Virus record (IMG/VR): IMGVR_UViG_3300025150_000002 | Span: 139,522-203,521 of that record | Source: a virus | Taxonomy: Duplodnaviria; Caudoviricetes | DNA length: 64,000 nt | Reading direction: 5' to 3' (one strand) | Shown: one piece after another, positions 8,992 to 63,394 of the stretch | Numbering within the stretch: position 1 is the first letter of the stretch | Layout: each line of letters begins with the position of its first letter | Position numbers and translations under genes: made by a program | Notes under the pieces: generated by a model | What the model was told of the DNA's origin: nothing | The model's input: the letters and a program-made list of their open reading frames with translations, nothing else | Databases searched by the model: none

Positions 8992-9519
8992 GTGGCCATG
9001 AACATCAAGGAATTTTTCAAGGCGAGGGACGACTCTGATCGAAGAAGTCGGTTCAACCCTAACCGTAACCTTCGGCTGTCCTATGTTCGTACGGAGCCAA
9101 AGGGATGGCCGCTGACACGGCCTGCCACCAGTATCGAGTGGGCGCATGTGCTCAAGGTTATGATCATGCGCCGCGTCCCGAAGTCGGGACCGATACATCA
9201 GATCAAACTGATCCGGTACGTATCAGAGGACTTGTTGGCCGCCAGCGCGGCGGGCAAGATCTACGTAGACAATGACTTCGTCGAGATGCGAAGGGTCATG
9301 GGAGTCTTCGAGAACATGTGCGGACGAGATAGGACGCTGCGCACAGCCCCTTTCATGGAGGATCCGGATATGGCCTATGAAGCACCAGCTGTTTACAGAA
9401 CGGACGCGGCAGATCGCTGGCTGGAGAGGGTCCCGGTCGTCGTTATGGCGGTTGTGAACCAACTCCCAACTACGAGTGTACTCGACATGATGGTCCAGGC
9501 ATTGTTGGATGATGAGTAG
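8992..9519 (+). CDS. Hypothetical protein with LDxL tag
   Basis: Ends TSVLDMMVQALLDDE. Confidence 0.6.
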   Translation: MAMNIKEFFKARDDSDRRSRFNPNRNLRLSYVRTEPKGWPLTRPATSIEWAHVLKVMIMRRVPKSGPIHQIKLIRYVSEDLLAASAAGKIYVDNDFVEMRRVMGVFENMCGRDRTLRTAPFMEDPDMAYEAPAVYRTDAADRWLERVPVVVMAVVNQLPTTSVLDMMVQALLDDE

Positions 9520-9718
9520 GGAACCCATCCCCCGAGTGGACCACCGTTTTTGTGGTTTTGATGATCTTCCAGCTCCCTGAGCTGGGTAGCCCTAGCACGG
9601 CCGACGCGACGGCCTTTAGCGCGGCGTCCTCGCTGGTGAACGCCCCAGCATTGCAGAGCAGGACCCCACGTCGACTAAACAGGAGCAGGGTGTAGTTGAC
9701 ATCGTTGGGTTGATCCAC
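9470..9718 (-). CDS. Hypothetical protein
   Basis: Co-oriented behind 9731 ORF; 3' end overlaps opposite-strand gene. Confidence 0.4.
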   Translation of the reverse strand: MDQPNDVNYTLLLFSRRGVLLCNAGAFTSEDAALKAVASAVLGLPSSGSWKIIKTTKTVVHSGDGFPTHHPTMPGPSCRVHS

Positions 9719-9730
9719 ATCAGGTCCTTG

Positions 9731-10159
9731 TCATATCTCAGCCAGCTTGTCCAGGATGTTGATTTGTTTGGCCGTTGGGCGTGGTACGGAATCCGACACG
9801 AACATCGGCGTGTTGAAGTCTACTGTGATGCCACCCTCTGGGTGGCGCGCGTAGGCCTCGCAGTGACGGATGGCTTGTAGCACGTCCCAGGCAATCTTGC
9901 CCCTCTCCGAAGGGCAAGAGGATATTCCGTAGGAGTGACTTGGTCCGCCGGTTAGGTCTGGGAAGATGCTCACTTTCACCTCCTCCATGAGGGCCTCGAT
10001 CTTGCCTACGTCGATGTCTTGGCAGAAGAACTGCTCCCTGATGGTGTGAAATTGTCCGATGTGGATCCGGGCGAGCACGTCAAGCGCGGTTACGACCACT
10101 CGTGCCTGCTCAGGGGTGAGGGTCACTCGGATAAAGTAGTTCTCGTCCCGTTGGGTCAT
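9731..10159 (-). CDS. Hypothetical protein with LDxL tag
   Basis: Ends INILDKLAEI; ATG 10159 lies 7 nt after a GGTATAAA box. Confidence 0.7.
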   Translation of the reverse strand: MTQRDENYFIRVTLTPEQARVVVTALDVLARIHIGQFHTIREQFFCQDIDVGKIEALMEEVKVSIFPDLTGGPSHSYGISSCPSERGKIAWDVLQAIRHCEAYARHPEGGITVDFNTPMFVSDSVPRPTAKQINILDKLAEI

Positions 10160-10225
10160 GGACGATTTATACCGCGTACGGTTGTCGGAGGCGCCAGGTA
10201 GAAGAACAGTGAAGGGGTGCGGGAA

Positions 10226-10693
10226 ATGAGCCAACCGACTAGAGACCCTAAGGTGGTGGCGAAAGCGGCTGCTAAGGCTCTATCGCGCGAGTATGAGGCC
10301 TCGCTGACCGACGAGCAGAGGCAAGACCTCGCCAAATGGTGGATGCTTAGCATGGCTCGAAGAGAGCCAATCCGCACAACATCAACTGATACTTCGGAGT
10401 CGGGGTTGACCGAGAGCTACGAGCCCGCGAAGGCGTTCGCCGAGCTACCTTCTGCGGTGCAGAAGCAGGTCAAGAAGCTCCTGTCGCAGTACAGCACCGA
10501 TAAGATCTATGACATTTGCCTGGGCCTAGCGCCTCGTATTCGTAGTTTCGTCAAGCGTATCTGGAAGCGAGAGGACAAGAACGGCGAGGACTGGCCCACT
10601 ATTGCGAGTGAGATGGCTGAGACAGCTCACAAGATCCTGATGCATCGGATTGACATCGTCCTTTTCTTCGGTGTGTGTGGAGCGAGACGGTGA
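10226..10693 (+). CDS. Hypothetical protein
   Basis: Follows GGTAGAA box at 10197; first of a + strand run. Confidence 0.6.
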   Translation: MSQPTRDPKVVAKAAAKALSREYEASLTDEQRQDLAKWWMLSMARREPIRTTSTDTSESGLTESYEPAKAFAELPSAVQKQVKKLLSQYSTDKIYDICLGLAPRIRSFVKRIWKREDKNGEDWPTIASEMAETAHKILMHRIDIVLFFGVCGARR

Positions 10694-10976
10694 GGTGCCA
10701 TCCGAGGATCGGATGTGTCGGATGACTCAGGCCAGACGCGAGTGCGATGCGCTTCTGACCGTCTTCGCGCATTATTTCACCATCGGATCTAGCACGAAGC
10801 TTGCGGCTAACTGCACTACTTACGCGATGGCAGATAACAAGGCACAGCTCCTGGGCGGGCTGATCGATGTTGTCGACTCCGGGCGAATCGATCCACAGCG
10901 AAGAAGATCTCGGGTCAACGCCGCCATGAACCTAATCAAGACCAACGGCTGGAAAATGCCTGAGAGAGATAAGTGA
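10650..10976 (+). CDS. Hypothetical protein (start uncertain)
   Basis: Tightly packed in + strand run. Confidence 0.5.
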   Translation: MTSSFSSVCVERDGEVPSEDRMCRMTQARRECDALLTVFAHYFTIGSSTKLAANCTTYAMADNKAQLLGGLIDVVDSGRIDPQRRRSRVNAAMNLIKTNGWKMPERDK

Positions 10977-10980
10977 TCTA

Positions 10981-11445: not shown

Positions 11446-11497
11446 TCCCTCCCTTAGTCTAAGGGGAGAAGGTAGTCTCCATTTAGGAGGCTACCAA

Positions 11498-12274
<777 letters not shown>

Positions 12275-12278
12275 TGAA

Positions 12279-12786: not shown

Positions 12787-13053
12787 CTACCTCCATTTTA
12801 CCCCGAACCGACGAGGGCGTCGTGTCGTACGAGGGTCGATCAACTCATCCAGGACTGTTCTCTCTTCGAGGATCAGACCAGCGGAAAAGCCGAGAGCTTG
12901 AGCGACCAAGGCGACATCGCGCAACCGCACGTCTTGATGTCCGCGTAAGACGTCCCTGACCGTTCGACAGCTAATACCAAGGATCCGAGCGAGTTCCCGG
13001 GGCTTCAGGCCTCGATCTTCGAGCTCGGCGCGGAGCAGGGCGGGTCCAGGCAT
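12787..13053 (-). CDS. XRE-family HTH regulator with LDxL tag
   Basis: RGLKPRELARILGISCRTVRDVLRG...VAQALG then TVLDELIDP. Confidence 0.75.
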   Translation of the reverse strand: MPGPALLRAELEDRGLKPRELARILGISCRTVRDVLRGHQDVRLRDVALVAQALGFSAGLILEERTVLDELIDPRTTRRPRRFGVKWR

Positions 13054-13421
13054 CGGTGTCCCTCCGCAGCCATCCTATCCAACACTCCGGGCATCAGTGC
13101 GAGCTTGGCCGCCTTTATGGAGAGATAGTGTCTAACCGGCACGCCGTCGATGAAGATCCCCCATACCTTCTTGCTCTTACGGTATCGGATCTCACCGTTG
13201 GTGACCTCAAGCGACTTGAAGGGGGTGACCACGCACACCACGTATCGCGTCCGAAAGCGTCTCTTGCTGCGTCGGCGCAGCACAAATGAGCCTACTGGGT
13301 GTGCATTCCGATCGATGTAACGATCGTTGCTGCGGAAGAAGTCTACCCAGTGAAGAGTCGGGTGCTGCTTGATGTCCTCGTGCCAGTCCGTGAGGTTGTT
13401 CATCGGCTCGTCCTGTCCCAA
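13005..13421 (-). CDS. Hypothetical protein with LDxL tag
   Basis: PGVLDRMAAE near C-terminus. Confidence 0.55.
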   Translation of the reverse strand: MGQDEPMNNLTDWHEDIKQHPTLHWVDFFRSNDRYIDRNAHPVGSFVLRRRSKRRFRTRYVVCVVTPFKSLEVTNGEIRYRKSKKVWGIFIDGVPVRHYLSIKAAKLALMPGVLDRMAAEGHRCLDPPCSAPSSKIEA

Positions 13422-13460
13422 GTCAACGCCCGGTATAATCTGATCAGCACCGGAGTTGCC

Positions 13461-13649
13461 ATGTCTTCTACCCTAGATCAGCGTATCCGAAGCGTCGAAG
13501 CTATCCTGGGCTTCGAACTTCGCAGCTACCAAGACCAGGCCCTTCGGGCTTTAGGTGCCGGGAAGAACGTCATCCTTCACGTTCCAACTGGTGGCGGGAA
13601 GGAAGGCTACTTTGTGCTAGACTCTCTTTCAGAGGAGGTCGGTGTATGA
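13461..13649 (+). CDS. 62-aa duplicate of RecQ N-terminus (intact Walker A) ending in LDxL tag
   Basis: LGFELRSYQDQALRALGAGKNVILHVPTGGGK...FVLDSLSEE aligns with the first 47 aa of the next gene. Confidence 0.7.
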   Translation: MSSTLDQRIRSVEAILGFELRSYQDQALRALGAGKNVILHVPTGGGKEGYFVLDSLSEEVGV

Positions 13650-20980: not shown

Positions 20981-21343
20981 ATGGACCTCAAGACGCGAAA
21001 GTCGGTTATTCGTAAGCTGAGGGGCATGCTGGTGCGCTGGCCTCCGGCTTCAGTTGATGAGGCCTATGACGTAGGTCGCCTCGCCGCCTGCCTACTCCCA
21101 GACTGGCTGGAGTCTGAGCACAGGACGTTTGATGAGTTCCTGTACGAGCATGGATGGAGGTCGAACGTCGCTGAGCGCGCAGCCTGGCTCGCGCACAACT
21201 ACTACGAGGTGCCGTCACGGGGTATCTGGCGCCAATTGGACTTCTACCAGATAACCCGTGCGGCTCAACTCACTCAGGTTGATTGTCGCGAGCGGTTGCT
21301 CGCGTGCGGTATCAACGTGCTTGATTTGATGGCGATGATCTAG
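20981..21343 (+). CDS. Hypothetical protein with LDxL tag
   Basis: Ends GINVLDLMAMI; GGTAGAAC 7 nt upstream. Confidence 0.7.
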   Translation: MDLKTRKSVIRKLRGMLVRWPPASVDEAYDVGRLAACLLPDWLESEHRTFDEFLYEHGWRSNVAERAAWLAHNYYEVPSRGIWRQLDFYQITRAAQLTQVDCRERLLACGINVLDLMAMI

Positions 21344-24283: not shown

Positions 24284-25135
24284 ATGCTGCGCTTCTTCGA
24301 CAAGCAGGGCCGACCTATCTCCTCCGAGCAATGGAGCGACTATCTCTGCGATCCTGATTACCAGATCATCAATCAGACCTGTGGTTGCGGGAAAATGGTC
24401 TCCACCGTCTGGCTCGGGCTGGATCACAGCCACGGCACTGGTAAGCCGGTAATCTTCGAGACGATGGTGTTTGGCTCCAACGGCCCTGGAGACGAGCTCG
24501 ACTGCGTGCGGTACTCATCCTTGGAGGAGGCGGTGGCCGGCCACGAGCGTCTAGCTAAGGAGCACGCGCTCGTTCTCGATCAGATCGTGTCAGCCATCGA
24601 GCGGGTCGACAACACCATCACCGTCTGGTCGATCCAGAGACTGTCCGCCTTCGAGAGGCTTCAGGAGTCCGGCGCGATCCATGGTGACTGGCGTCGCGTC
24701 GATAAATACTTCAAGAACCCCTATCGGTGGCTCTGTGATCAGATGGAGTCAAACGGAATTAGACTCCACGGTCGATGTCCTATGTGGGCCTGGGCTCACA
24801 AGCCGGATTTGAGGTCCGTTGGGCACGCTGCCCGAGGCGAGGCTGCCGTACGGCTTGAGTTGGAGGTCCCGGTTGTGGACTGCCTGGTCTCGAACTTCTC
24901 TGCCTGGCATTGCGTGTTGAACGACCATTTCATGGTGATCAACGATGCCGAGATGGCGAAGGAGTTTGACGGGAAGGTCAGCGGCTACACCCGCGCCGAA
25001 ATCAGCCAAAGCTGGCTGCGGATCTTCGATCTAGCGCTCTGCGCAGACAGCGGCTACGGCGACTTGTGCCAGGTCACCTTTCCGGGCATCGAGCTTAGCC
25101 AGGTTCGCAAGGTCACGAGGTTCAAGGGAAGGTAG
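24284..25135 (+). CDS. Fusion: small phage domain + LDxL tag + DUF3841-like domain
   Basis: VSTVWLGLDH...IFETMVFG; VLDQIVSAI; VWSIQ...PMWAW...PDLR...FSAWHCVLN. Confidence 0.7.
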   Translation: MLRFFDKQGRPISSEQWSDYLCDPDYQIINQTCGCGKMVSTVWLGLDHSHGTGKPVIFETMVFGSNGPGDELDCVRYSSLEEAVAGHERLAKEHALVLDQIVSAIERVDNTITVWSIQRLSAFERLQESGAIHGDWRRVDKYFKNPYRWLCDQMESNGIRLHGRCPMWAWAHKPDLRSVGHAARGEAAVRLELEVPVVDCLVSNFSAWHCVLNDHFMVINDAEMAKEFDGKVSGYTRAEISQSWLRIFDLALCADSGYGDLCQVTFPGIELSQVRKVTRFKGR

Positions 25136-26279: not shown

Positions 26280-26636
26280 ATGGCGGTTCCGAACCTGAGT
26301 AAAATCCAGCGTCTAGAGGCCGAGCTCGCGGCGGAGCGTAAGAAGCTCGACGAGTGGGATAAGAGGCCCGACGATGCGCAGAAGCTCGCAGAGCTACTCC
26401 ACGAGCGATTCTGTAGATACAACCACACCGACGGGTGCAGCTGGGGCTACGAGTGCGGATCCAGCCATCCGGCACGTCACGATCCGTGGGAGTTCGGATT
26501 TGCGCACAAGGAGTGGCTCGGCAAGGCTCGCCTTTTTTTGGACACGGCTGGCAAGATCCAGAAGACAGTTAAGGGAAAGAGTGGTTATCAGCTCGCTGAG
26601 GCGCTGCTGATGGAGTGGCCGTCGTTCCTTCGCTAG
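26280..26636 (+). CDS. Hypothetical phage protein
   Basis: SD GGAGG; LHERFCRYNHTDGCSWGYE. Confidence 0.65.
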   Translation: MAVPNLSKIQRLEAELAAERKKLDEWDKRPDDAQKLAELLHERFCRYNHTDGCSWGYECGSSHPARHDPWEFGFAHKEWLGKARLFLDTAGKIQKTVKGKSGYQLAEALLMEWPSFLR

Positions 26637-26971
26637 ATGTCAGCGAGGTCATCGAGGATCATCGCCTCTCGTAGACGAGGCAAGACAACGGTTGTGACAA
26701 GTTGCCTGTCGATGAAGCCGTCACTCAGCTCGTAGGCCTGCGTGTAGGCTCTGAGACGTCCATACCCATGGGGGCCGGTAAGGACGTCTATGATGATGCC
26801 CGGCCGCCACATTATCTTGAGTCCAGCTACACGAAGGCCTGTCGAGTTAACACGGGGCAGGGCGGTCAGGATAGGGCCGAGCAGGCGCATTGCACGGGCG
26901 TCGAGCTCCTCGACGAGCTGCCTCTGAAGCTCGTAGTCCTCTGGGGTTCCATCCTGATCGTCATCCCACAT
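26633..26971 (-). CDS. Hypothetical protein with LDxL tag
   Basis: Ends REAMILDDLADI; GGTAGAAC 7 nt upstream. Confidence 0.7.
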   Translation of the reverse strand: MWDDDQDGTPEDYELQRQLVEELDARAMRLLGPILTALPRVNSTGLRVAGLKIMWRPGIIIDVLTGPHGYGRLRAYTQAYELSDGFIDRQLVTTVVLPRLREAMILDDLADI

Positions 26972-28505: not shown

Positions 28506-28784
28506 ATGAGGGAGGAGAAGCCGACCTATACATACGGCGAAGAGGTTGTGCTAACGCGCGCCAAGGTCTTCTACCGAGTAGATGATCGGTCCAGGCGGAC
28601 TCTCCCAAAGGGAAGCGTGGTCCAGGTCGACAGGCCTGAGGCCCTCTGCGACGATCACGGGCACTTCGGGCGGTTCTGGTATCACCTAAAGTACGAATTC
28701 TGGTGGTCGGCCATCGCCGAAGAGGGTGACATCACCAAGCCCGGTGTGTTGGATCGACTATCCATCATCAGAGGACCTGAATGA
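28506..28784 (+). CDS. Hypothetical protein with LDxL tag
   Basis: Ends PGVLDRLSIIRGPE. Confidence 0.65.
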   Translation: MREEKPTYTYGEEVVLTRAKVFYRVDDRSRRTLPKGSVVQVDRPEALCDDHGHFGRFWYHLKYEFWWSAIAEEGDITKPGVLDRLSIIRGPE

Positions 28785-33575: not shown

Positions 33576-34101
33576 GACCCTTAAGCGGTCCTGGACCTGG
33601 TTGGTCAGGCTGTTCCGGCCACGACAGCTGACGGAGTCAGAGGTCGTTACGGCCTACATCGCTGCTGGCGCCTGTTACGGTGATGCCTGCACCTATCCCG
33701 GCGGTATGGCCCCTTCTATTGGCAAGTTTTCTGCCAGGGAGGCATGGGGGGTGATGGAGAAGGAGTATGCTGCACTCGGCTACCGAACCATCCCCATCAA
33801 GGATCTGATTGACCTAGGAGGCTACGGTCAGCCGGTGACCAAGCTGGTCCGGATCAGTCGAGACATAGGCGAAGAGGCTTTGCTCTGGGAGCCGAGCATC
33901 GAAGGGCCGGTCCCGATGGGGCCCGACGTCCTCGACCAACTCGCGAGCATCGGCGACCCAAGGACGTGCCCGGAGTGCCGAACCGAACTCTTGGAGGCCG
34001 ATCGAGTCCACTGCACGTGGTGCCTGAGCTCTATCCTCAGAGGATCTTTCGATAACCACTTGGCCGCCAACATTGCTGAGACCTACCTACAGACCGAATG
34101 A
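33505..34101 (+). CDS. Hypothetical protein, internal LDxL tag followed by Zn ribbon (start uncertain)
   Basis: PDVLDQLASIG then CPEC...CTWC. Confidence 0.55.
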   Translation: MISISGWHNSPPSSGTTGSLLVLETLKRSWTWLVRLFRPRQLTESEVVTAYIAAGACYGDACTYPGGMAPSIGKFSAREAWGVMEKEYAALGYRTIPIKDLIDLGGYGQPVTKLVRISRDIGEEALLWEPSIEGPVPMGPDVLDQLASIGDPRTCPECRTELLEADRVHCTWCLSSILRGSFDNHLAANIAETYLQTE

Positions 34102-35640: not shown

Positions 35641-35904
35641 TCAGTTACCGTGGGTCGCCACAACGATTTGATCCAACACGTCTAGCGCTACCAGCTCGTG
35701 TAGGTAGGCGCGGATGGACTGACGCGCCTGCCACGGCCAGGGTGTGCGGTCCCCCGGCCAGGGAACAAGATAGTAGGGCGGCAACAAGGAGCCGTCGATG
35801 TAGTCGACCACCCAGATCCCACTGTCAAACCGCGACCGAGCTCGCAGTGTTAGCCGAACCTTGTCGCCTATAAGCGGGTAGGTCTTACCCTTTCCCCAGC
35901 TCAC
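35641..35904 (-). CDS. Hypothetical protein with LDxL tag
   Basis: Ends DVLDQIVVATHGN. Confidence 0.6.
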   Translation of the reverse strand: MSWGKGKTYPLIGDKVRLTLRARSRFDSGIWVVDYIDGSLLPPYYLVPWPGDRTPWPWQARQSIRAYLHELVALDVLDQIVVATHGN

Positions 35905-36170
35905 AGCTCGCCTACGATCCTATCCAGGATGTTGATGGTATCGATCTTCTCGACCCACCTGGGTGAATACCAAATGCGCGGTCCGCGTGATGTCGTAAGC
36001 GGTCCACCAGTTAGGTCCCAATGAATCTGGACCTCTCCGTCGTCACGGTCGTTCTCAGGGAGACACTCGATGACGGTGCCCTGCCACATCCAGTCGTATC
36101 CACCGTCCCTCACGAAGACGACTCGGTCACCGAGGCCAAGGAAGTGCCCTCCAGGAGTTGCCCAGGCCAT
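35901..36170 (-). CDS. SH3/KOW-like small protein with LDxL tag
   Basis: GDRVVF...GTV; ends INILDRIVGEL. Confidence 0.65.
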   Translation of the reverse strand: MAWATPGGHFLGLGDRVVFVRDGGYDWMWQGTVIECLPENDRDDGEVQIHWDLTGGPLTTSRGPRIWYSPRWVEKIDTINILDRIVGEL

Positions 36171-37810: not shown

Positions 37811-38055
37811 TTGCCCACCTGCTCAGCATCGTTGATCGCCTTCACGATCCGGTCCAAGACCGGCACGGTCTCGTCGACGAGCTCCCATCCGTGGATCGAG
37901 CACATCAACCGGCACACCTCGCGGTCCATGTCAAACGGTCCCTCGATCTCGTAGTCGATGCCGGGAAATCTCTTCTCCATGAAGGTCCGAAGGTGACCAT
38001 CGATCTGCTCGACCGTCATAAACCTCTTCGTTGTCATGTAACCGTGGTTGGCCAT
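37807..38055 (-). CDS. Hypothetical protein with LDxL tag
   Basis: Ends PVLDRIVKAINDAEQVGK. Confidence 0.65.
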   Translation of the reverse strand: MANHGYMTTKRFMTVEQIDGHLRTFMEKRFPGIDYEIEGPFDMDREVCRLMCSIHGWELVDETVPVLDRIVKAINDAEQVGK

Positions 38056-38753
38056 TACGGTAACTCTGATGCCGCCGCCTCGTCGGCGAGGCGCTCAGCC
38101 TCCTCGTCGGCGAGACGCTCAGCCTCTCGCTCGTCCAGCAGCTCCTGAAGCTCGGCGTACGACCAGCCACGCAGGTCCATCATCATCCGCCGCCACAGTG
38201 GGTTATCCGGGTCGTTGATCCCATCAACCACGGCCAGCTGGCCGTTTGTTGCCGAGCCGTGGCCGCCACCAGCTCCACGGCAGTCCTCGTTCATCCACTG
38301 GAACTCGAACTCGCAGTCCGAGAAAAGAGAGGCCATCTTCTCGAAGACCGGAAAGGGAGGCGACCACGCCGTCTGGAACGCCACCGACGCGACGGTGGAG
38401 TCCGTGCCTACGCGCGCCAGCTGGTCCAGGACCCCGAGGTCACTGTCGACCTCGACCTCATATGCGTCCCACTTGGTGCCCCAGTTGTCGGGGTTCCATG
38501 TGTTCCAGCAGAACGGGTTCGGATCGCCGCCCCCGAGTCGGTGGTTGTAGTGGCTGTGAGAGCAGGTGTCGTTGTTGTAGTCAGGGTGGTCGGGAGGAGG
38601 CACGAACCCTCGAAACGAGAAGGCTCGGCGCTGGTAATCCGACACCTTGCCCGTCGCCGGGTCTATCGGCTCGTAGACACCTAGTGCCAGAAACTCTGCC
38701 ACCCGTGTTCTCGGACCGCTGATCGTGATCTTGTTTGATACGTGGTTCGGCAT
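38055..38753 (-). CDS. DUF1281/YubB-like protein with internal LDxL tag
   Basis: MPNHVSN, NWGTKWDA, FQTAWSPP; GVLDQLARV between them. Confidence 0.75.
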   Translation of the reverse strand: MPNHVSNKITISGPRTRVAEFLALGVYEPIDPATGKVSDYQRRAFSFRGFVPPPDHPDYNNDTCSHSHYNHRLGGGDPNPFCWNTWNPDNWGTKWDAYEVEVDSDLGVLDQLARVGTDSTVASVAFQTAWSPPFPVFEKMASLFSDCEFEFQWMNEDCRGAGGGHGSATNGQLAVVDGINDPDNPLWRRMMMDLRGWSYAELQELLDEREAERLADEEAERLADEAAASELP

Positions 38754-39012: not shown

Positions 39013-39300
39013 CTATGGCTTGATCCGAGCGAGAGACTCCAGCACTAGGTGCGCGCGAAGCGCTCTCAGTACCTTTGCGCACTCTCGCTTTTTTACGACC
39101 TTCTTCTGGCCCGGAGAGGTCGAGAAGACGAGCTGGTTTGAACCACGAGGGTCGTGCACGATAGAAGGCCGACCGTTGATCGATGTCATTATCAACCAAT
39201 CCCCTATCCAAGCCTCTTCGTGTTCCGCCATTCGACAGGATATTACGGCGAGCGCTACGAGCTCGGCCTCCAGTTCCTTCGTCCACGGCTGGTAGGGCAT
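39013..39300 (-). CDS. Hypothetical protein with LDxL tag
   Basis: Ends LRAHLVLESLARIKP. Confidence 0.6.
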   Translation of the reverse strand: MPYQPWTKELEAELVALAVISCRMAEHEEAWIGDWLIMTSINGRPSIVHDPRGSNQLVFSTSPGQKKVVKKRECAKVLRALRAHLVLESLARIKP

Positions 39301-42866: not shown

Positions 42867-43107
42867 GCCGAGAATCAGGGTGTTCTGGAGCGCAAAGGAT
42901 TACGACCTGAAGGCTGCATGGGACGCTGGGTGCGCTTCTCAAGACGGCGGCTACCTACTGTTCTTGCTTTTCAACAAGACGTTCCTGGAGGCGCTGGACG
43001 AGCGTGGCTACGACATCAAGACGCTCAGGTTCCAGATCAGAAAGAAGCCACCAAACGCGCTCGACCGAATCGTCAACGCAATCAACGAGGCAGAGGAGAA
43101 GGTGTAA
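42850..43107 (+). CDS. Hypothetical protein with LDxL tag
   Basis: Ends PNALDRIVNAINEAEEKV. Confidence 0.65.
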   Translation: MPLMLEPRIRVFWSAKDYDLKAAWDAGCASQDGGYLLFLLFNKTFLEALDERGYDIKTLRFQIRKKPPNALDRIVNAINEAEEKV

Positions 43108-43670
43108 TGGGCTACGAGACTGAGATTTACCTGGTAGACAAGGGCCATGACGACTGCCTCGTCCAGTGGCAGCCTGCCTCAGAGCACTGGTACACCGCGA
43201 CCAGGAACCCGCTCGACCGGTTGGTCGAGGCCACCGGCGAGGTCAATAAGGACCCGCTTCAAGGGGTTCCGGCCGACGCCCTGTTCTCGGATGGCGGAGT
43301 GATCATCGCTTCGCTGAGGATGGGTACGATCGGGAGTGGTGGCCACGACGATGGAGAGCTCGACGACTTCTTCGCCAAGAACCGCGAGAGGCAGAAGATG
43401 GAGAAGAAGTTCCTCCTCCTTAAGTGGATGCCGAGCGACTGCCTCAACACCAGCGAGTGGCCCGATGTCACCGACCCCTACGGCGACCCCTACGTCCTGC
43501 ACGACGCCCAAGGCACCCTGGATGCCCTCAATCGAACCATCGAGCGCAAGCTGAAGGAGAACGATGGAGTGCTGTATACGATCGATCGGCGCTATTCCAT
43601 GTTGAAGGCCATCCTCGTTCCTTTCATCGCTGGATGGCCGAACCCAGCGGTGGTGACACGTGGCTACTGA
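43107..43670 (+). CDS. Hypothetical protein with internal LDxL tag
   Basis: MGYETEIYLV; NPLDRLVEAT; TAATG coupling. Confidence 0.65.
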   Translation: MGYETEIYLVDKGHDDCLVQWQPASEHWYTATRNPLDRLVEATGEVNKDPLQGVPADALFSDGGVIIASLRMGTIGSGGHDDGELDDFFAKNRERQKMEKKFLLLKWMPSDCLNTSEWPDVTDPYGDPYVLHDAQGTLDALNRTIERKLKENDGVLYTIDRRYSMLKAILVPFIAGWPNPAVVTRGY

Positions 43671-44283: not shown

Positions 44284-44808
44284 ATGCCTAAGCACGTCGA
44301 GCGCGAGCGGTTTCCTGTTCCTGGAGCGTTCGGACTAGAGCGGTCCAAGGAGCGATCCGAAGAGAACTGGCTACGCCGCACCCAGTCTAACTGGGACTAC
44401 CTCAACCGTGCCGGTTCCTACCAGGATCACCTCTACATCTACGTTGAGGAGGAGTACGGTTACCGTAGCCACGTGTGGACCTATCCTGGAACCGCGCAGG
44501 AGCTAGTCGAGGACTGGTGCGCTGGGCTCACTCCCTGGCAAGGTAGGTTCAAGGGAGATTTCAAACAGGTTGATTTCGTCACGTCAGGTGACCATCGAGG
44601 ACGTGATTACCCAAGAGCTATGAACCTTGTCCTGGTTCAGACCGGTGAGGTCTTCCCGGGCATCTACGAACTAGATGATTTTGATGGGGAGTGTCACATC
44701 CACGAGGATGATGACGCTTATCTGAAGGTGGGTTTCTACAGAGTGCGTGGACGCGACAACCCTGAGGTCGAGTTCCGGGTGCTAGACGCTCTGGCTTCGA
44801 TTAGATGA
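44284..44808 (+). CDS. Hypothetical protein with LDxL tag
   Basis: Ends FRVLDALASIR. Confidence 0.65.
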   Translation: MPKHVERERFPVPGAFGLERSKERSEENWLRRTQSNWDYLNRAGSYQDHLYIYVEEEYGYRSHVWTYPGTAQELVEDWCAGLTPWQGRFKGDFKQVDFVTSGDHRGRDYPRAMNLVLVQTGEVFPGIYELDDFDGECHIHEDDDAYLKVGFYRVRGRDNPEVEFRVLDALASIR

Positions 44809-50170: not shown

Positions 50171-50586
50171 TCCAGAAGACTGTCTACAGAATCCGTATCA
50201 CTCGCGTGGTCCCCAACGAGTTCTTTTCTGATGAGCCGGTCGGTAGCTACAGCTACTTCAGCCCGTTCCCCGGTACAGGCCGCCGGTATACGTTCTTGCG
50301 GCGAGCCAACATCTGCGATGTGTGCGGTGACCACATCACGGCTATCAACTTCGCCACCATCGCCGAGGCTAACACGAGGCTCAAGACGGCCTGTGTGAAG
50401 GACATCCTTGAGTACTACGGCGATGAGGGAGTTTATCCAGGCAAACACGGTCCGCCCTATCGACTTGACATCGTTGAGGTCAAGCTAGATCGACGCGAGC
50501 GTTACGGGTGGTGCAAGACCAGCGAGCGAGTGGTTCGCCAGATTGTCCCTGAGCCCACGATCCTCGATCAGCTGTCGGTGATCTGA
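50167..50586 (+). CDS. Hypothetical protein with LDxL tag
   Basis: Ends PTILDQLSVI. Confidence 0.65.
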   Translation: MIQKTVYRIRITRVVPNEFFSDEPVGSYSYFSPFPGTGRRYTFLRRANICDVCGDHITAINFATIAEANTRLKTACVKDILEYYGDEGVYPGKHGPPYRLDIVEVKLDRRERYGWCKTSERVVRQIVPEPTILDQLSVI

Positions 50587-50834
50587 TGAGCAAGTTCAAG
50601 CCCGGTGATGTAGTAAGAGTCGCGGACTACTACGACCTACGACTCGTCGGACACGTGTTCACAGTTCTCGACTTTTCAACCCTGTACCACTGCTGGGACC
50701 ACCCAGTCATCTCTAACCCTTACTATGAGGAGGATGGTCAGTCCAACCCAGCTAGGTGGCCTTGTCTTTACATCAGATTCAGTCCCGATCAGTTGGAGCA
50801 CTGGACCGTACTTGATAGGTTGGCGAAGGTTTAA
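50586..50834 (+). CDS. SH3/KOW-like small protein with LDxL tag
   Basis: FKPGDVVRV; ends WTVLDRLAKV. Confidence 0.65.
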   Translation: MSKFKPGDVVRVADYYDLRLVGHVFTVLDFSTLYHCWDHPVISNPYYEEDGQSNPARWPCLYIRFSPDQLEHWTVLDRLAKV

Positions 50835-53419: not shown

Positions 53420-53724
53420 GCGCTAACTCGAACCCTCTTCGGTGGAATCCACCGATTCACTATTTTAAGGGCGAGCGTGTTCAGTATCGGTCTGTCTACG
53501 CTAATTTCGACACCAACCGGCCGCATGAACAACGCGGGACCGTTGACGAGGACGCCCCCACCAGCACCTTGACAGGCGTCTTGGTGCGGTGGGATAACGG
53601 TGAGCTCCAGGCGGTCTATGGCCACAGCCTGATCAAGCTGAACGTGCTCGATTTGTTGGCCGAGATCAACGCCTCAACGACCCCAGAGCGTCCAGAGGAA
53701 AGGCCGTCATCAGAGCGCTCATGA
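53416..53724 (+). CDS. SH3/KOW-like protein with LDxL tag
   Basis: FKGERV...VRWDNG; LNVLDLLAEI. Confidence 0.6.
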   Translation: MSANSNPLRWNPPIHYFKGERVQYRSVYANFDTNRPHEQRGTVDEDAPTSTLTGVLVRWDNGELQAVYGHSLIKLNVLDLLAEINASTTPERPEERPSSERS

Positions 53725-54166: not shown

Positions 54167-54391
54167 TCAGATCCCGCTCAGAGCATCAAGCGGGTAGAGG
54201 TTGATGAGCGCGCGCAGGAGCGCCCGAGCCTCGTCCGATGAGAGCGGAACGGCGACTATCTTGCCGTCCACCATTGCGACATCGGTAGTGGTCACAGGCG
54301 TGACAGGAGCTCCGTGAGGGGGCTCGTTGAGAGGGTCGATGACCAGGCTGATCTCGTCGTCTCCAAGGTCTACCCAATGCTTATCGATCAT
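54167..54391 (-). CDS. Hypothetical protein with LDxL tag
   Basis: Ends NLYPLDALSGI; GGTAGAAC 7 nt upstream. Confidence 0.65.
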   Translation of the reverse strand: MIDKHWVDLGDDEISLVIDPLNEPPHGAPVTPVTTTDVAMVDGKIVAVPLSSDEARALLRALINLYPLDALSGI

Positions 54392-58583: not shown

Positions 58584-59018
58584 ATGACCCAACGCCCGCC
58601 ACAAGGACCGACCGACTTCCGATTGTGCGAGCGGAGTGACATCAACGCTCTCATCTATCGATGCATAGACTACGTCGCCACGGCGTTAAACCCGTGGCCC
58701 GTATACGGTCACCCGGAGGAGGAGGACTGCTACACCAATTCCACAACCCTCTTCGGTGTCTGGCGTGTGGTGGCCGTCTGGACCGCCTCAGGTTGCCTGT
58801 TCGCGCTGACCGTAAACCAAGTGTCATCTCATGAGGTCGTCCTCAGCTACTACAACGCCGAGTTCGATGAGCCGGACGACTACATCGATGCACCTGATGA
58901 TCTACTCCCAGTAAACGTAGATCATATCGAGGTGTCCTCTGGATCAGAGGAGCTGATCGCATTGTTCTCGGCCGACCTGGGTACAGCGTTCGTGCTAGAC
59001 GCGCTGGCGGATATCTAG
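58584..59018 (+). CDS. Hypothetical protein with LDxL tag
   Basis: Ends AFVLDALADI. Confidence 0.65.
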   Translation: MTQRPPQGPTDFRLCERSDINALIYRCIDYVATALNPWPVYGHPEEEDCYTNSTTLFGVWRVVAVWTASGCLFALTVNQVSSHEVVLSYYNAEFDEPDDYIDAPDDLLPVNVDHIEVSSGSEELIALFSADLGTAFVLDALADI

Positions 59019-59287
59019 TGGACATCACCCTTCAACCTGGGGACCGAGTCGAGTGCTGGGTCTCTGGTCCAAGCTCATGCGGGCGCTACCTCATTAGCAA
59101 CGTGAAGCTCGCCAAGGGCACTTTTCATGGCTGGGAGGCTCAGGGTGTTGATCGTGGTCCGCACATCTACTACCCGAACGGAGCGTCATGGGCGAGGGTT
59201 CAGGTTGATGGCTCCAGCGATGTATACCGTGTTCGCCCTGAGAAGGTCTTCCGTCTGGGCGTCCTGGACCGACTGGCGGAGATCTAA
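59018..59287 (+). CDS. SH3/KOW-like protein with LDxL tag
   Basis: LQPGDRVE; ends LGVLDRLAEI. Confidence 0.65.
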   Translation: MDITLQPGDRVECWVSGPSSCGRYLISNVKLAKGTFHGWEAQGVDRGPHIYYPNGASWARVQVDGSSDVYRVRPEKVFRLGVLDRLAEI

Positions 59288-59658
59288 TGCACCCATCTGA
59301 CGACCCCAACAACGAGGACCTGGTCATTGAGATCCAAATGGTTGCGACCAGGATCCTTGCCGCGCTCAAGTTGCTCAACCCGAAGGACTACAAGGTCGTC
59401 TGGGAGAATCGGGAAACTCTCAGAACCCCGGTAGTCGGTTACACGGAGTGTTACGCCGAGACCGGCCGGTTAGGGCTTCGATGCTCAGATACCGGCTGGG
59501 TCACTGCGGTAGACCTTCTCCTACCGAGCCGCACTCTTTTTCATGCGTGGATCGGTAACGGTCCGCTGGAGTACGATTGGGATACTGACGTGGCCCGCAA
59601 ACTAATCATGCCAGAGTTGCGGCGTGTTCTGATCCTTGAGGACATGGCGAGGATCTGA
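59287..59658 (+). CDS. Hypothetical protein with LDxL tag
   Basis: Ends RRVLILEDMARI. Confidence 0.65.
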   Translation: MHPSDDPNNEDLVIEIQMVATRILAALKLLNPKDYKVVWENRETLRTPVVGYTECYAETGRLGLRCSDTGWVTAVDLLLPSRTLFHAWIGNGPLEYDWDTDVARKLIMPELRRVLILEDMARI

Positions 59659-59972: not shown

Positions 59973-60482
59973 ATGCCGAACGCACCTGTAGTGACCTGTC
60001 CGCACTGTCCGCACTGTCGAGCCATGGTGGCCGCCCACCCTACGCCTGTCTCTGAGAAGGCTCGTAAAACCCCCAAGATAGGTGAGTGCTCCTTCTGTAA
60101 CGTAGCCGCGACTTGCTCCGCTTGGGGCGTCGCGTCCTACGGACCTGGGGGAGGACTTGACGCCCACTGGGCGATCTTCCCGGCATGCGACCGATGCGCC
60201 GACTCTGATTGGGGCGCCCGGCCGGCCCACACCAGACCATCAACCTCGGCAACACGTCGGGTCGTAGGCGCACCGGCTCTACCCGAGCTTATCGAGTGCT
60301 CCTTCGTGATGTCTTGGGCTGGAATGTGCCACGTCAAGCACCCCAAGTCCGAGGGCAAGTTCTGCGCTCGCCACCGTGGACTGAAGTGTCGGTGTGGAAG
60401 AGCGGCTTCCACGGACTGCGACTCAGTAATCGGACCGATGGTCTGCGGGATGCCGCTCTGCGGCAGGTGCCGCTGTCACTAG
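59973..60482 (+). CDS. Cys-rich multi-zinc-finger protein
   Basis: About 18 Cys in CxxC pairs; SD AAGGAGGAG. Confidence 0.65.
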   Translation: MPNAPVVTCPHCPHCRAMVAAHPTPVSEKARKTPKIGECSFCNVAATCSAWGVASYGPGGGLDAHWAIFPACDRCADSDWGARPAHTRPSTSATRRVVGAPALPELIECSFVMSWAGMCHVKHPKSEGKFCARHRGLKCRCGRAASTDCDSVIGPMVCGMPLCGRCRCH

Positions 60483-60709
60483 ATTCGGGCCAGGTCGTCT
60501 AGCACGAACTCGCGGCCCAACAGCCTCATCAACTCCAATACCTCGTCCTTCATCATCCCAACCTGGCCAGCGAGCCTTCCTTCGCTGAAGCGACGCTCGC
60601 TTAGGACCACACGCTGCTTGTCGTCGCTGATGGCGAGCTCCAGCCGTATGAACTCGTCACCGCCATCTCTGGACAGAGACCGTCCGAATCGGGTCACTAC
60701 GTATTTCAT
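60479..60709 (-). CDS. Hypothetical protein with LDxL tag
   Basis: Ends REFVLDDLARI. Confidence 0.65.
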   Translation of the reverse strand: MKYVVTRFGRSLSRDGGDEFIRLELAISDDKQRVVLSERRFSEGRLAGQVGMMKDEVLELMRLLGREFVLDDLARI

Positions 60710-61299
60710 TGGACTCTCAGGAGGTGGGAGTGGTGGTCGCGGTGGGTCCTGATCTTGACCTGTGGAACGCCGGCCACCAGGATCCCGTGCTTGGTCAGCC
60801 AGGCGATTGTCTCGTCGAATGTCTCATCACGGCCCATCCTGGTTAACGCGACCTCGTCCCACTCGTGGTCATCCATGTTCTTGCGCCACTCTCCGCCGAT
60901 GTGGTGGACCCAGAGAATTCCCATGAGCGATGCGCGCGACTCCTCTCGGAAATCGTAGTCACCGGCCATGATCGAATCGCAGTTTCCGCCGTCAGGCTCC
61001 GAGCCCAGGCCAAAGCCCTTCAGAAGCCGACGCTTAGGGGAAGCGACCTGATAGTGGCCGAGCTCGTGGAGGATGTTCTGGACTGAGTCACCTCGAAGCG
61101 TCTGACTCTTGCCGTCCCATTGGTATTTCTGATTATCGAACGACCACTTGAACCCCTCCCACTTCAGTCCGAACGACTTCACGAGCTGGTCCATTTTGCG
61201 GACCAGGTCGCAGTTAGGGTCGGCCTTCAACACGTTTTCCCGAAGGCTACTGACGTGGTTCGAAAAAAGTGCGGCCCGAATCTCCTCCGCAGGTGTCAT
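60706..61299 (-). CDS. HExxH-motif protein (putative metalloenzyme)
   Basis: ILHELGHYQVA..KRR..KGFGLG.EPDGG. Confidence 0.6.
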   Translation of the reverse strand: MTPAEEIRAALFSNHVSSLRENVLKADPNCDLVRKMDQLVKSFGLKWEGFKWSFDNQKYQWDGKSQTLRGDSVQNILHELGHYQVASPKRRLLKGFGLGSEPDGGNCDSIMAGDYDFREESRASLMGILWVHHIGGEWRKNMDDHEWDEVALTRMGRDETFDETIAWLTKHGILVAGVPQVKIRTHRDHHSHLLRVQ

Positions 61300-61514
61300 G
61301 TAATGCGCCCCAGCATGTCCAAGGGGAACCGCTCATTGATCAGCTTTGCCAGATCCATCAGCGCCTCGTTCGCCACGACGATACGGAGGTCTCCCTCCCT
61401 CCCATCTCGGATTCTGATGATCGAGGAATACACGGGGCCGAACTGGATGGCTAGCTCCGCCCGGTAGTTCTTGTCGGTGTCTGATTTCTGGAAGACGATC
61501 AGCTCGTGACTCAT
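61296..61514 (-). CDS. Hypothetical protein with LDxL tag
   Basis: Ends RFPLDMLGRIT. Confidence 0.65.
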   Translation of the reverse strand: MSHELIVFQKSDTDKNYRAELAIQFGPVYSSIIRIRDGREGDLRIVVANEALMDLAKLINERFPLDMLGRIT

Positions 61515-61621
61515 ACCATTCTCTTACCCGGAGATCGCTCGAAAATGTTGCGGCCAACCACTCGATGCATTAGGACGGCCTGCACCTATCGGGTCAAACG
61601 CCGGTAGAACAGGAAGAGGAC

Positions 61622-62089
61622 ATGACACCTCAGATGAATTTGAAGCAACGCGTGTGGGGGCCGAGCGTTGACCACGATCCTCGCTGTGACCAGCGCATCT
61701 CCGGAGGCCATCTAAGCGTACGTTACACCTGCCTCAAGCGTTTCTACTGCGAGGGATGCGACGCCATGCACATGGACCGCAAGTGCCCTCGGACCGTGCT
61801 GGACCAGATCGTGGAGGCGGTCGAGTTCGAGAGGAAGACCCCCAAGCAGCTGATCGGCGAGATCCTCGACGCGGCTGAGGCTCGGGGAGGTTATCTCTCC
61901 GGACGTCCGATCGAGTTCCACATCAAGAGCCGGATCGAGGAGTTGGTGGCCCGGCACGGTAACCTCGGCATGACCCGAGTGAGGCTCTTCAACATGATTC
62001 GTAAGGAGATGCACCGCCGGTGGAATCGGGAGTACCGGCGGCTGTGGGAGGAGCGCCGTAAGGAGCGCGAGCAGGAGCGCGAGGAGTAG
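61622..62089 (+). CDS. Hypothetical protein with internal LDxL tag
   Basis: Cys/His N-terminal part, RTVLDQIVEAV, basic helical tail. Confidence 0.6.
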   Translation: MTPQMNLKQRVWGPSVDHDPRCDQRISGGHLSVRYTCLKRFYCEGCDAMHMDRKCPRTVLDQIVEAVEFERKTPKQLIGEILDAAEARGGYLSGRPIEFHIKSRIEELVARHGNLGMTRVRLFNMIRKEMHRRWNREYRRLWEERRKEREQEREE

Positions 62090-62092
62090 GGC

Positions 62093-62590
62093 GTGAGTGA
62101 TATGGGACACTTGCTGGAGCAGTTGCGGTCCGAATCACGGGACGAGGCCGTAGATGCGGCAGAGAGCCTCGGCCGACAACACAGCGCAGAGGCCGTCCCA
62201 GTCCTCCTTGAGGTTCTCCAAGAGACTGACGACAGGGTAATTCGAAATGCTGTGGCAATGGCATTGAGGGAGATTGGCGATAGTAGGGCCGCTGCGCCGC
62301 TTGCAAAGCTGATCGATCACGATCACACGTTGGGCTCAAGGGGCACGCTACTCTATGCTCTTGAGAGTTTTGACTGCACCCCCTTCGCTCCGATGCTGAT
62401 CCGCCTAGTCACCACAGGAGGTTTTGAAGTAAGAGCGCAGGCATTGCGCATTCTGATCGACCTCCTCGCCCCGGAGAAGAAAGTTTACCGCGTCGTCTTG
62501 AACTGCGAGGCTGAGCTTGATGAGGCTAGGAATCGGCTCCATCACCTGGAGTTGCTGTTCGACGCAATTGGCGCTTGCCAGGGCCCTTAA
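62093..62590 (+). CDS. HEAT-repeat (PBS-lyase-like) protein
   Basis: AAESLG...AVPVLLEVL...IRNAVAMALREIG. Confidence 0.8.
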   Translation: MSDMGHLLEQLRSESRDEAVDAAESLGRQHSAEAVPVLLEVLQETDDRVIRNAVAMALREIGDSRAAAPLAKLIDHDHTLGSRGTLLYALESFDCTPFAPMLIRLVTTGGFEVRAQALRILIDLLAPEKKVYRVVLNCEAELDEARNRLHHLELLFDAIGACQGP

Positions 62591-62702
62591 TTCGGCGGAC
62601 CCGGTTCACCAGTTGGAGAAGCACAGTGTCTTCGTCGGTCCAGTCCATACCTACCTGTTCTACCACCTAAGTCCATGCCGTTTCAAGAATTTGCGGCCCG
62701 TA

Positions 62703-62951
62703 CTAGGCTTGTCCTAGTGCGTCTAGTGGGGAGTCTTTGATGAGCCACCCCATGATGTCGCGGCGCGTCTCGGGTGCAGCGTGGGCGAGGAGAACACGAA
62801 GCAATGCGGCCCGCCTCGTATCGTCCATACCAACGCACCCTACACTGGTCCCATCCTTGGTCATGTAGAAGTCGGCGGCCCCATTCTCATAGAGCTCGAT
62901 GATTAGCTTAACCGACTCGTTCGAGTGGCTGGTGAAGGCGACGATTTGCAT
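62703..62951 (-). CDS. Hypothetical protein with LDxL tag
   Basis: SD AGGAG; ends DSPLDALGQA. Confidence 0.6.
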   Translation of the reverse strand: MQIVAFTSHSNESVKLIIELYENGAADFYMTKDGTSVGCVGMDDTRRAALLRVLLAHAAPETRRDIMGWLIKDSPLDALGQA

Positions 62952-62989
62952 TTGATCTCCTGGGTGTTTCAAAGGATTTGCGGCCCCTA

Positions 62990-63394
62990 CTAGGAGCCCA
63001 ACTCAGCCAGCATGTCCAAGACCATGAGCTCGTCCAAGAGCGGCTTTATGAGCTTGAGAACGACGTCCACGTGGGTGAGAGCGTAGTTGATGGCGTTGGC
63101 GCTATCGGCTGCGAGTAGTGTCCCTTCAACGGAAGGGTCGACGGAAGGATCGATGATACGTACGGTGCCGTCAGGGTCGAGGCAAACACGGTAGCCGCCG
63201 AGCCTGCAACTGCAGTTGCTGCAGCCGTAATTGCCGTTTAGGCCGTCCTGCCCGTCAGCGATCTGAACTGCCCTCTCACCGACGTGCTTGAGCCACCCCT
63301 GGTAGTCGTGGACGTTGGATCGGAGGTAGATTCGGAGGTGCCTGACAAGGGCCTCCAGCTGCTCGTTGGGCGGTGGGTTTAGTTGACTGTGCAT
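62990..63394 (-). CDS. Hypothetical protein with LDxL tag
   Basis: Ends ELMVLDMLAELGS; GGTAGAAC 6 nt upstream. Confidence 0.6.
   Translation of the reverse strand: MHSQLNPPPNEQLEALVRHLRIYLRSNVHDYQGWLKHVGERAVQIADGQDGLNGNYGCSNCSCRLGGYRVCLDPDGTVRIIDPSVDPSVEGTLLAADSANAINYALTHVDVVLKLIKPLLDELMVLDMLAELGS

Follow-up and report, generated by a model that had tools for sequence, protein, structure and literature searches.

Most genes of large phages encode small orphan proteins that carry no clue to function. In the final 64 kb (positions 139,522 to 203,521, henceforth the window) of the 203,521-bp single-contig virus record IMGVR_UViG_3300025150_000002 (henceforth G000), about thirty such proteins end in variants of one octapeptide, typified by VLDRLAEI and here termed the tag. 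This locus raises the question of what a peptide shared by otherwise dissimilar proteins does. An initial annotation had counted about 29 tagged proteins and interpreted the peptide as a possible genome-wide addressing label that routes accessory proteins to one receptor, such as the capsid, a phage compartment, a protease or a host hub. Following the tag through the genome, through related phages and into structural models, we read it, with somewhat more confidence than doubt, as a clade-specific short linear docking motif that acts at the protein level.

Judged by its genes, G000 reads as a distant T4-like myovirus. Its GC content is 58% and its estimated completeness 89% (CheckV); a codon-usage model combined with dynamic programming called 256 genes that cover 91% of the record. 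Structural and recombination genes include a major head protein (phrog_138), a tail sheath, UvsX and a second Gp23-like protein, and the replication genes comprise a family A polymerase, helicases with inteins, a DnaC/IstB-like loader, a primase and a clamp loader. A CobS-like MoxR ATPase and a CobT-like vWA protein are also encoded, and GlnII, ClpS, hemerythrin, NUDIX and homing endonuclease genes lie in the window, whose coordinates equal genome coordinates minus 139,521. For comparison we used further IMG/VR records: G001 and G002, which cover only genome positions ~0.3-135 kb and have a capsid protein 94% identical to that of G000 and most other proteins 40-75% identical; G006, a 54-kb fragment syntenic with the window (proteins 27-88% identical); and a sister clade of G003, G004 and G005 (capsid protein 69% identical), of which G005 is complete at 275 kb, with a GC content of 65% in the stretch read. 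A search with the CobT-like protein supplied about 40 further relatives.

An octapeptide concentrated at C-termini

We scored the pattern [VIPA]L[DE]x[LIM][AVSG]x[ILVA] and counted a match as a tag when it lay at most 10 residues from the C-terminus. So defined, the tag occurs on 27 of the 256 called proteins, about one gene in ten, against an expectation of 0.12 when whole proteins are shuffled and 0.18 when the last 30 residues are shuffled (maximum 2). Reversed proteins gave one match and N-termini none. The enrichment over a null that the initial annotation had named as a check is thereby established, and its count proves roughly right once weaker cases are added; it had also correctly described the replication enzymes, GlnII and ClpS as untagged. 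A six-frame scan, which is independent of the gene call, returned 33 matches in the window, most of them at most 10 residues from a stop, and 28 of 50 matches in the whole genome lay as close. The window holds 22 of the 27 tags, the other five lying at 1.3, 1.7, 74, 75 and 125 kb of the genome. Tagged proteins are small, with a median of 94 aa compared with 150 aa for all proteins. From the tag instances we built a profile, which added a few relaxed cases and six internal copies (Table 1).

The positions originally listed are boundaries of open reading frames (ORFs), sometimes the start of the next gene, and not those of the tags. One listed item, VLDSLSEEVGV at 13461, is not a tag but the end of an N-terminal fragment of a RecQ-like helicase. 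The frame of this helicase breaks just after Walker A (...HVPTGGGK), where a 116-aa ORF ends, overlapping by 4 nt a 1422-aa ORF that carries the helicase remainder and inteins; in G006 the helicase is one continuous protein of 624 aa.

Elsewhere the peptide was scarce. No near-stop match occurred in 14 unrelated phage loci (~205 kb, fetched for another purpose), and an IMG/VR search for the exact DNA pattern of VLDRLAEI followed by a stop gave two matches, which is chance level. A homologue search with one tagged protein recovered that protein alone, and related-locus scans with a DFP-like protein and with a tagged-protein alignment yielded no new loci.

Conservation at the peptide level

Among the 27 tags, position 1 is V (16), P (5), I (4) or A (2), position 2 is always L, position 3 is D (25) or E (2), position 5 is L (20), I (4) or M (3), position 6 is A (15), V (5), S (4) or G (3), and position 8 is I (17), A (7), L (2) or V (1). 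N, T, G and S are frequent just before the octapeptide, where F stands in 4 of 27, and the residue at -5 is hydrophobic in 20 of 27. After position 8 the protein ends at once in 14 cases, after 1-2 residues in six and after 4-9 in seven. On a helical wheel V1, L2, L5, A6 and I8 would share one face, with D3 at its edge, and the motif may accordingly be described as an N-capped amphipathic helix of about two turns, [T/S/N/G]-[V/I/P]-L-[D/E]-x-[L/I/M]-[A/S/G/V]-x-[I/L/V], in many cases preceded at -5 by a hydrophobic residue. Sequences ahead of the tags are variable and often Pro-rich. There are two recurrent sub-variants: VLDxIVxA usually runs on into a few acidic residues, and PLDxLG, directly preceded by a helix, occurs in a six-member subfamily alignable at 25-44% identity.

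Roughly half of the tags touch the next start codon or run into it, and E, R and K, whose codons here (GAG, AGG, AAG) resemble a Shine-Dalgarno sequence, are frequent at position 7. Both features would suit a DNA or RNA signal at gene ends, i.e., a ribosome-binding or coupling cassette, a promoter or a terminator, that is translated incidentally. Such a signal should constrain nucleotides, yet across 28 motifs at most 20 aa from the C-terminus (the 27 and one 17 aa away) third codon positions are nearly free, at 0.08-0.76 bits, and leucine is spelled CTT, CTG, CTC, CTA and TTG, every codon except TTA. The pattern is also frame-specific, with few matches in other frames. Moreover, seven tags end genes that converge with a gene on the opposite strand and others precede gaps of 200-400 nt, so that the motif is independent of a downstream start codon or ribosome-binding site. 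In some coupled genes position 7 has a purine-rich codon that may serve as a Shine-Dalgarno sequence as well, which accounts for at most one position. A nucleic acid signal is already disfavoured by these data, and we give it next to no credence. The synonymous codon differences described in the initial annotation are borne out, and conservation at the DNA or RNA level, which it had named as fatal to its proposal, was looked for, with the constraint found at the peptide level.

One tail on many bodies

With tails removed, the bodies yielded one paralogue pair by blastp, and phmmer sorted 36 motif bearers into 33 clusters. Pfam gave either no match or differing weak matches (KOW, an SH3-like domain), and a helix-turn-helix (HTH) is visible in the sequence of one body; the bodies thus include several folds. 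If the tail were a relic of common descent, the slowest-evolving part of one small ancestral gene that had duplicated, paralogous bodies would be expected, and the blastp pair, the alignable PLDxLG subfamily and an MI[VM]RRVP segment common to two tagged proteins are of this kind. Some remote paralogy is likely for the subfamily and for the bearers of the segment. As an account of the whole set, descent from one gene appears very unlikely to us: body types range over SH3/KOW-like, Cys-rich zinc-ribbon-like, HTH and winged-helix-like proteins and DUF3841 or DUF1281_C fusions, the clusters number almost as many as the bearers, and retention of the tail alone would still require selection on the tail. 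The original statement that the bodies have no other similarity therefore holds for most of them and is slightly overstated for the pair and the subfamily.

The helix would be attached through a variable, often Pro-rich linker to small accessory proteins of differing fold, at the C-terminus or, in rare cases, at a domain junction. The modularity of the tail is apparent from one orthologue that lacks it altogether and from internal copies, at least two of which sit at domain junctions (before DUF3841 and before DUF1281_C).

Retention and drift within one clade

The motif is kept in 10 of 11 orthologue pairs of tagged proteins (27-63% identity), and the eleventh orthologue, in G006, ends 16 residues earlier, exactly at the start of the tail. 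Free loss of the tag among orthologues, which would have spoken against the addressing proposal, is thus not the pattern seen. Tag residues are 64% identical in these pairs compared with 50% for the bodies (p=0.02). More telling than this difference is that the pattern survives while its free positions change; for example, a protein ending in ALDRLAQIR here ends in VLDRMARL in its orthologue, at 39% overall identity. The gene of a 127-aa protein extends this record. Two relatives (CobT 71-76% identical) keep VLDFLSLL at the end of its orthologue, and a relative with a CobT 58% identical keeps NPLDLLASL at the end of an orthologue that is just 20% identical; the alignment of five orthologues has no more than 19 invariant columns, and the tag contributes its L, D and L to them.

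The tag also recurs beyond these pairs. G006 shows 12 matches to the DNA pattern over its 54 kb, compared with one in the reversed control, and has further tagged genes without a counterpart in G000. In a more distant relative (L135; CobT 60% identical), an array of 32 small genes contains 10 whose products fit a broadened pattern at most 12 aa from the end (0.05 in shuffles), and by eye about 20 of the 32 end in a [N/G]-P-L-[E/D]-x-L-[A/S]-x-[L/I/V] flavour. The sister clade does not rise above background, with 14, 8 and 6 DNA-pattern matches against 6, 6 and 3 in controls. G005 showed no tag within the 39.5 kb read and no other spelling among the gene ends of an 18-kb stretch, and two farther relatives (CobT 54% and 47% identical, the latter with a DnaN like the sister clade) had no tag in the neighbourhoods of their CobT genes. 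By these comparisons the tag reads as the property of one clade, with a lineage-specific spelling (V-L-D here, P-L-E in the farther relative).

An unpacked tail and the case for docking

We modelled the 127-aa protein with AlphaFold2 from the alignment of five orthologues. The model (pLDDT 80.4, pTM 0.77) has a body at pLDDT ~85-95 with a weak, non-significant likeness to winged-helix regulators, a coil linker at residues 113-119, and a tag (residues 121-127) that falls below pLDDT 50 and is drawn as a short helix unpacked on the body. Docking motifs that fold on binding their partner would typically combine strong conservation with low structural confidence, and the modelled arrangement of folded body, loose linker and unpacked tail suggests a peptide for docking rather than a structural element. 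For the PLDxLG subfamily the AlphaFold2 model (pLDDT 52) was too low to use.

An intrinsic role has nevertheless to be weighed, in which the motif is a terminal capping or small oligomerisation helix with no shared reader. A cap residue with D or E at N3, the third position of the helix, forms a generic capping box, PLDxLG tags directly follow a helix, and the hydrophobic residue at -5 is common, all of which such an element would explain. It would not explain why the confident model leaves the tail unpacked or why one orthologue manages without it. Generic helix starts, moreover, would not cluster 150-fold at the C-termini of one phage clade, and the same concentration is absent from the sister clade and the 14 unrelated loci. 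We consider an intrinsic element rather unlikely.

A motif that is conserved at the protein level, modular, under selection and carried on an unpacked tail is best explained by a shared docking function. The helix would dock all tagged proteins on one common partner, as T4 polymerase, gp55 and gp33 dock via SLDFL on the gp45 clamp. The partner, presumably a single one, could be of phage or host origin, with tethering, packaging, remodelling or turnover as candidate consequences. Several points weigh against this interpretation: no reader was found; D or E after an S/T/N cap also makes a generic capping box, so that part of the pattern could be structural; tag identity exceeds body identity just modestly, and hydrophobic helix positions tend to be conserved anyway; the sub-variants, PLDxLG after a helix and VLDxIVxA running into an acidic helix, need not have the same partner; and there is one confident structural model only, the other having too low a pLDDT. 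Of the addressing label first proposed, the peptide-level signal on unrelated bodies stands, kept down to 20-27% identity, modular and, in one model, unpacked; the single receptor and the destinations named for it (capsid, compartment, protease, host hub) are not established.

More speculatively, and with less than even confidence, a clade of large, uncultured phages related to T4 may run proteome-wide addressing, in which new genes acquire the helix as a module, one dedicated reader, possibly phage-encoded, co-drifts with its spelling, and dozens of orphans reach a common destination, e.g., a capsid-like or replisome-associated hub.

The sliding clamp as candidate reader

The T4 precedent makes a clamp an obvious candidate. 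In the T4 record gp43 ends in ...ASLDFLFG and gp55 in ...SPSLDFLYEAND, and T4 clamp-binding tails are interchangeable, linker-attached and functional even when internal (PMC2988020). The tag resembles them as a short hydrophobic-acidic C-terminal peptide on unrelated proteins of a T4-like phage, with an L-D-x-L-hydrophobic core ([VIP]-L-[DE]-x-[LIM]-[ASGV]-x-[ILV] here, SLDFLFG and SLDFLYEAND in T4), a divergent, flexible linker (Pro-rich upstream, coil in the model) and a tolerance of a few trailing residues and of internal positions. It differs in being carried by ~30 orphan proteins, whereas T4 tags three replication and transcription proteins (gp43, gp55, gp33) with gp45 as known reader, and in having an aliphatic or small residue where T4 has an aromatic one.

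Proteins with such a motif would ride on a clamp, either the beta clamp of the host or one of the phage that escaped recognition and is loaded by the phage's own clamp loader. The frequent Ser/Thr-type cap is common with T4 SLDFL[FY], although here it stands one residue further from the Leu (V, I or P between), and one tag reads VLDFLSLI. G000 encodes a clamp loader (DnaX/gp44-like; phrog_5846, 7e-45), the loader gene is present in the tag-bearing G000, G001 and G002 and not in the tag-less sister clade, which carries DnaN, and a 124-aa protein encoded beside the loader ends in ...SVLDVLAGK. Against these points, neither PF02916, PF09116 nor TIGR00663 matched a clamp of the gp45, PCNA or DnaN type in G000 (with its estimated 89% completeness), G001, G002 or G006; the family A polymerase (PolA) ends untagged in ...ATKDQALP; and phmmer found no gp55, gp33 or gp43 homologue. 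A beta clamp is suggested by the loader, whose closest phage homologues are DnaX/gamma-tau-like, but the beta-clamp motif (QL[SD]LF or QLxLxL) has Gln and a different spacing (i, i+2, i+3), whereas the tag has V, P, I or A and never Q at position 1 and a spacing of i, i+3, i+4. We also know of no precedent for thirty small orphan proteins on one clamp. Overall, a clamp-binding role seems improbable.

The clades differ in their clamp genes in that the tag-bearing phages have a loader and no recognisable clamp, and the sister clade (G003/G005) a DnaN, lying between initiator and helicase loader, and no loader. A 528-aa protein at the relatives' dnaN position was rejected as a clamp because it resembles a replication initiator (HTH_36/Rep_O-like features), and the candidates g129656, g59869, g64785 and g123179 received no support from PHROG, PDB or Atlas.

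A C-terminal tail of a second type, an acidic stretch closed by Pro-Phe, is found on three replication proteins: the intein-bearing replicative helicase (...DDDDDPPFDEESILID), an initiator-like protein (...DDDDDPFAAVRAQING) and the RecQ-like helicase (...DDDPFAEDDEFIVPF). Tails in relatives end in ...DDDDPFVIPF and ...GGIPF. The C-terminal tip of the single-stranded DNA-binding protein (SSB) is DDDIPF, and T7 gp4 and gp2.5 have acidic tails that end in Phe. By this analogy, the acidic tails look like a separate docking code for the replisome.

Packaging, turnover and other readers

A short peptide behind a flexible linker is also the architecture of encapsulin cargo peptides, which, like the tag, are C-terminal, direct unlike proteins to one shell and bind an HK97-fold protein. 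The tag could accordingly be a capsid or scaffold targeting signal by which its bearers are packaged and injected. A short capsid paralogue ends an operon of tagged genes; G000 has this paralogue, G006 has two copies of it and G005 has none. T4 is reported to package internal proteins via a shared short signal (PMC3012670). The tagged genes, however, lie in arrays typical of early or accessory genes, outside the late morphogenesis module, and many other accessory genes follow the same presence and absence pattern as the paralogue. The T4 capsid targeting sequence, which likewise brings unlike proteins to one shell or scaffold, is N-terminal, is cleaved off and has an unrelated consensus. We regard packaging as quite unlikely.

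The capsid paralogue itself (327 aa) lacks the first ~100-150 residues of the major capsid protein and is 38% identical to the G001 capsid by tblastn and 47% over residues 95-316 in another comparison. Its gene is the last of its operon and stands among accessory genes, at a great distance from the head module; two copies lie in tandem in G006 (50% and 34% identical), and G005, which is complete and tag-less, has none. The family has 17 representatives at E<=1e-30 in a global protein library (35-52% identity, 246-347 aa). Candidate roles are those of a vertex protein, a cargo shell or a decoy for capsid-sensing defences.

C-terminal degrons (ssrA ...LAA, MuA; read by ClpX and others) are likewise short hydrophobic peptides that confer a common fate on unrelated proteins. 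As a degron, the tag would hand accessory proteins to a host or phage-modulated AAA+ protease and make them short-lived. The ending ...LAxI is loosely like ...LAA, the phage encodes ClpS and so interferes with Clp proteolysis, and small accessory proteins might be expected to act transiently. Such degrons, though, need a free C-terminus at a fixed register; just 14 of the 27 tags end at the stop, 13 are followed by 1-9 further residues and at least six copies are internal, so that a free carboxylate at a fixed distance is not required. ClpS, moreover, reads N-termini and not C-termini. A degron therefore strikes us as unlikely.

The CobT-like vWA protein (553 aa), with an intact DxSxS metal ion-dependent adhesion site (MIDAS) motif (DCSASM), and the CobS-like MoxR AAA+ ATPase (398 aa) are kept in both clades, and ~40 metagenomic relatives carry the pair, often with a peptide deformylase gene between. 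Peptide capture has been proposed for MoxR-vWA pairs (PMC7159879). By analogy, the pair could read the tag through its invariant acidic residue (D in 25 of 27, E in two), flanked by hydrophobic ones as in vWA/MIDAS ligands, on the MIDAS site. These ligands, however, are usually extended loops and not helices, and reader and tag do not co-occur, the CobS/CobT-like genes also being present in the tag-less G005 and G003. A complex prediction that combined the short capsid paralogue (34-row alignment), the CobT vWA domain (41 rows), Mg and a 34-aa tail (27-row alignment) scored 0.00, which is not evidence either way. A second vWA protein in the window, presumably exported, combines an intact DxSxS with an N-terminal signal or lipoprotein-like peptide and a (Pro-Thr)10 linker; it is kept in G006 (56%) and absent from G005. 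Its signal peptide and (PT)n linker make it an unlikely reader.

Eukaryotic LD motifs, such as paxillin LDxLLxxL, dock on four-helix bundles such as the FAT domain. They share with the tag an amphipathic helix of ~8 residues with a Leu-Asp start, Leu at +3, Asp at the edge of the hydrophobic face and reuse for docking. They differ in occurring as several copies within one scaffold protein and not as a terminal tag spread over a proteome, and no homology is implied.

Shared docking tails are a known principle, with T4 clamp clients, degrons and encapsulin cargo as examples; for their use on dozens of orphans we found no description, and literature searches returned no described phage C-terminal tag of this kind. 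If the shared tail docks, it would sort a tenth to half of the orphans into one functional class, show how phages plug newly gained genes into an existing machine, and provide a direct experimental handle, one peptide leading to one partner. Because its consensus drifts between lineages, co-variation provides a natural test of any candidate reader.

Tag positions and further features of the locus

Table 1. Tags, internal copies and other genes discussed (window coordinates unless marked genome; orthologues from G006 unless stated)
Feature	Position	Strand	After octapeptide	Gene and remarks
VLDMMVQA	9478..9501	+	LLDDE	gene 8998-9519; orthologue (63% identity) ends VLDLIVQALLDDE
ILDKLAEI	9734..9757	-	stop	gene 9731-10159; orthologue (56%) ends ILDRLADI
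VLDLMAMI	21317..21340	+	stop	gene 20981-21343; orthologue (43%) ends VLDVMTLI
ILDDLADI	26636..26659	-	stop	gene 26633-26971
VLDRLSII	28746..28769	+	RGPE	gene 28506-28784
VLDQIVVA	35656..35679	-	THGN	gene 35641-35904
INILDRIVGEL (relaxed)	35904..35936	-	stop	gene 35901-36170; SH3-like body (weak Pfam SH3_12); orthologues end NVLDQMAKELDDHSS and, in L135, NILDRIVEEL
VLDLLAAA	36916..36939	-	TEDSDE	gene 36895-37080
VLDRIVKA	37837..37860	-	INDAEQVGK	gene 37807-38019
VLESLARI	39022..39045	-	KP	gene 39013-39189
ALDRIVNA	43057..43080	+	INEAEEKV	gene 42859-43107; orthologue without the whole 16-aa tail
VLDALASI	44779..44802	+	R	gene 44284-44808; orthologue (47%) ends VLDALAAIT
ILDQLSVI	50560..50583	+	stop	gene 50167-50586; orthologue (27%) ends VLDRLAAIE
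VLDRLAKV	50808..50831	+	stop	gene 50586-50834; best HMM score
VLDLLAEI (possible)	53644..53667	+	18 aa	ORF 53416-53724, outside gene call; weaker case
PLDALGSL	53675..53698	-	RR	gene 53666-53863; PLDxLG subfamily
PLDALSGI	54170..54193	-	stop	gene 54167-54391; PLDxLG subfamily
VLDALADI	58992..59015	+	stop	gene 58584-59018
VLDRLAEI	59261..59284	+	stop	gene 59018-59287
ILEDMARI	59632..59655	+	stop	gene 59287-59658
VLDDLARI	60482..60505	-	stop	gene 60479-60709
PLDMLGRI	61302..61325	-	T	gene 61296-61514
PLDALGQA	62706..62729	-	stop	gene 62703-62951
VLDMLAEL	62999..63022	-	GS	gene 62990-63394
TVLDELIDP (relaxed)	12790..13053	-	14-aa basic tail	HTH protein; orthologue TVLDDLISK...
Internal VLDQIVSA	24572..24595	+		residues 97-104 of 283-aa protein, just before DUF3841 (113-249); orthologue VLDKIVRK
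Internal VLDQLARV	38409..38432	-		~residues 107-114 of 232-aa protein, just before DUF1281_C (122-159)
Internal VLDQLASI	33928..33951	+		49 aa before end of 198-aa protein; then Cys-rich segment
Internal PLDRLVEA	43209..43232	+		near N-terminus of 187-aa protein
Internal VLDQIVEA	61796..61819	+		after Cys-rich N-terminal segment of 151-aa protein
Internal ALDVLARI	10064..10087	-		same protein as tag ILDKLAEI (gene 9731-10159)
Replication protein, acidic tail	2-2011	-
Replication protein, acidic tail	2676-4262	-
RecQ-like helicase, N-terminal fragment	13299-13649	+		116 aa
RecQ-like helicase, remainder	13646-17914	+		1422 aa; acidic tail
vWA protein, presumably exported	11498-12274	+
Staphylococcal-nuclease-like protein	20475-20924	-		149 aa
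GlnII-like glutamine synthetase	21340-22425	-
Capsid paralogue	34612-35595	-		327 aa
Clamp loader	genome 54200-55219	-		L050:1203-2219
CobT-like and CobS-like pair	genome 118456-123105			L030

The second copy in gene 9731-10159, read as TALDVLARI at residues ~24-32, lies within an N-terminal helix, and G006 keeps TALDLFARV; it could be a coincidence or an intramolecular mimic of the tail.

Identity to the G006 orthologue is 88% both for the staphylococcal-nuclease-like protein and for the GlnII-like glutamine synthetase, compared with 40-60% for neighbouring genes, which indicates unusually strong constraint for accessory genes. GlnII was discarded as a host indicator, its homologues of ~60% identity being scattered across many phyla. 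A host lead comes from one close relative (P0027, locus L134; CobT 71% identical), whose 400-kb contig in NCBI is assigned by binning to a Nitrospira sp. metagenome-assembled genome; the GC content of 57% fits, but binning of phage contigs is unreliable.

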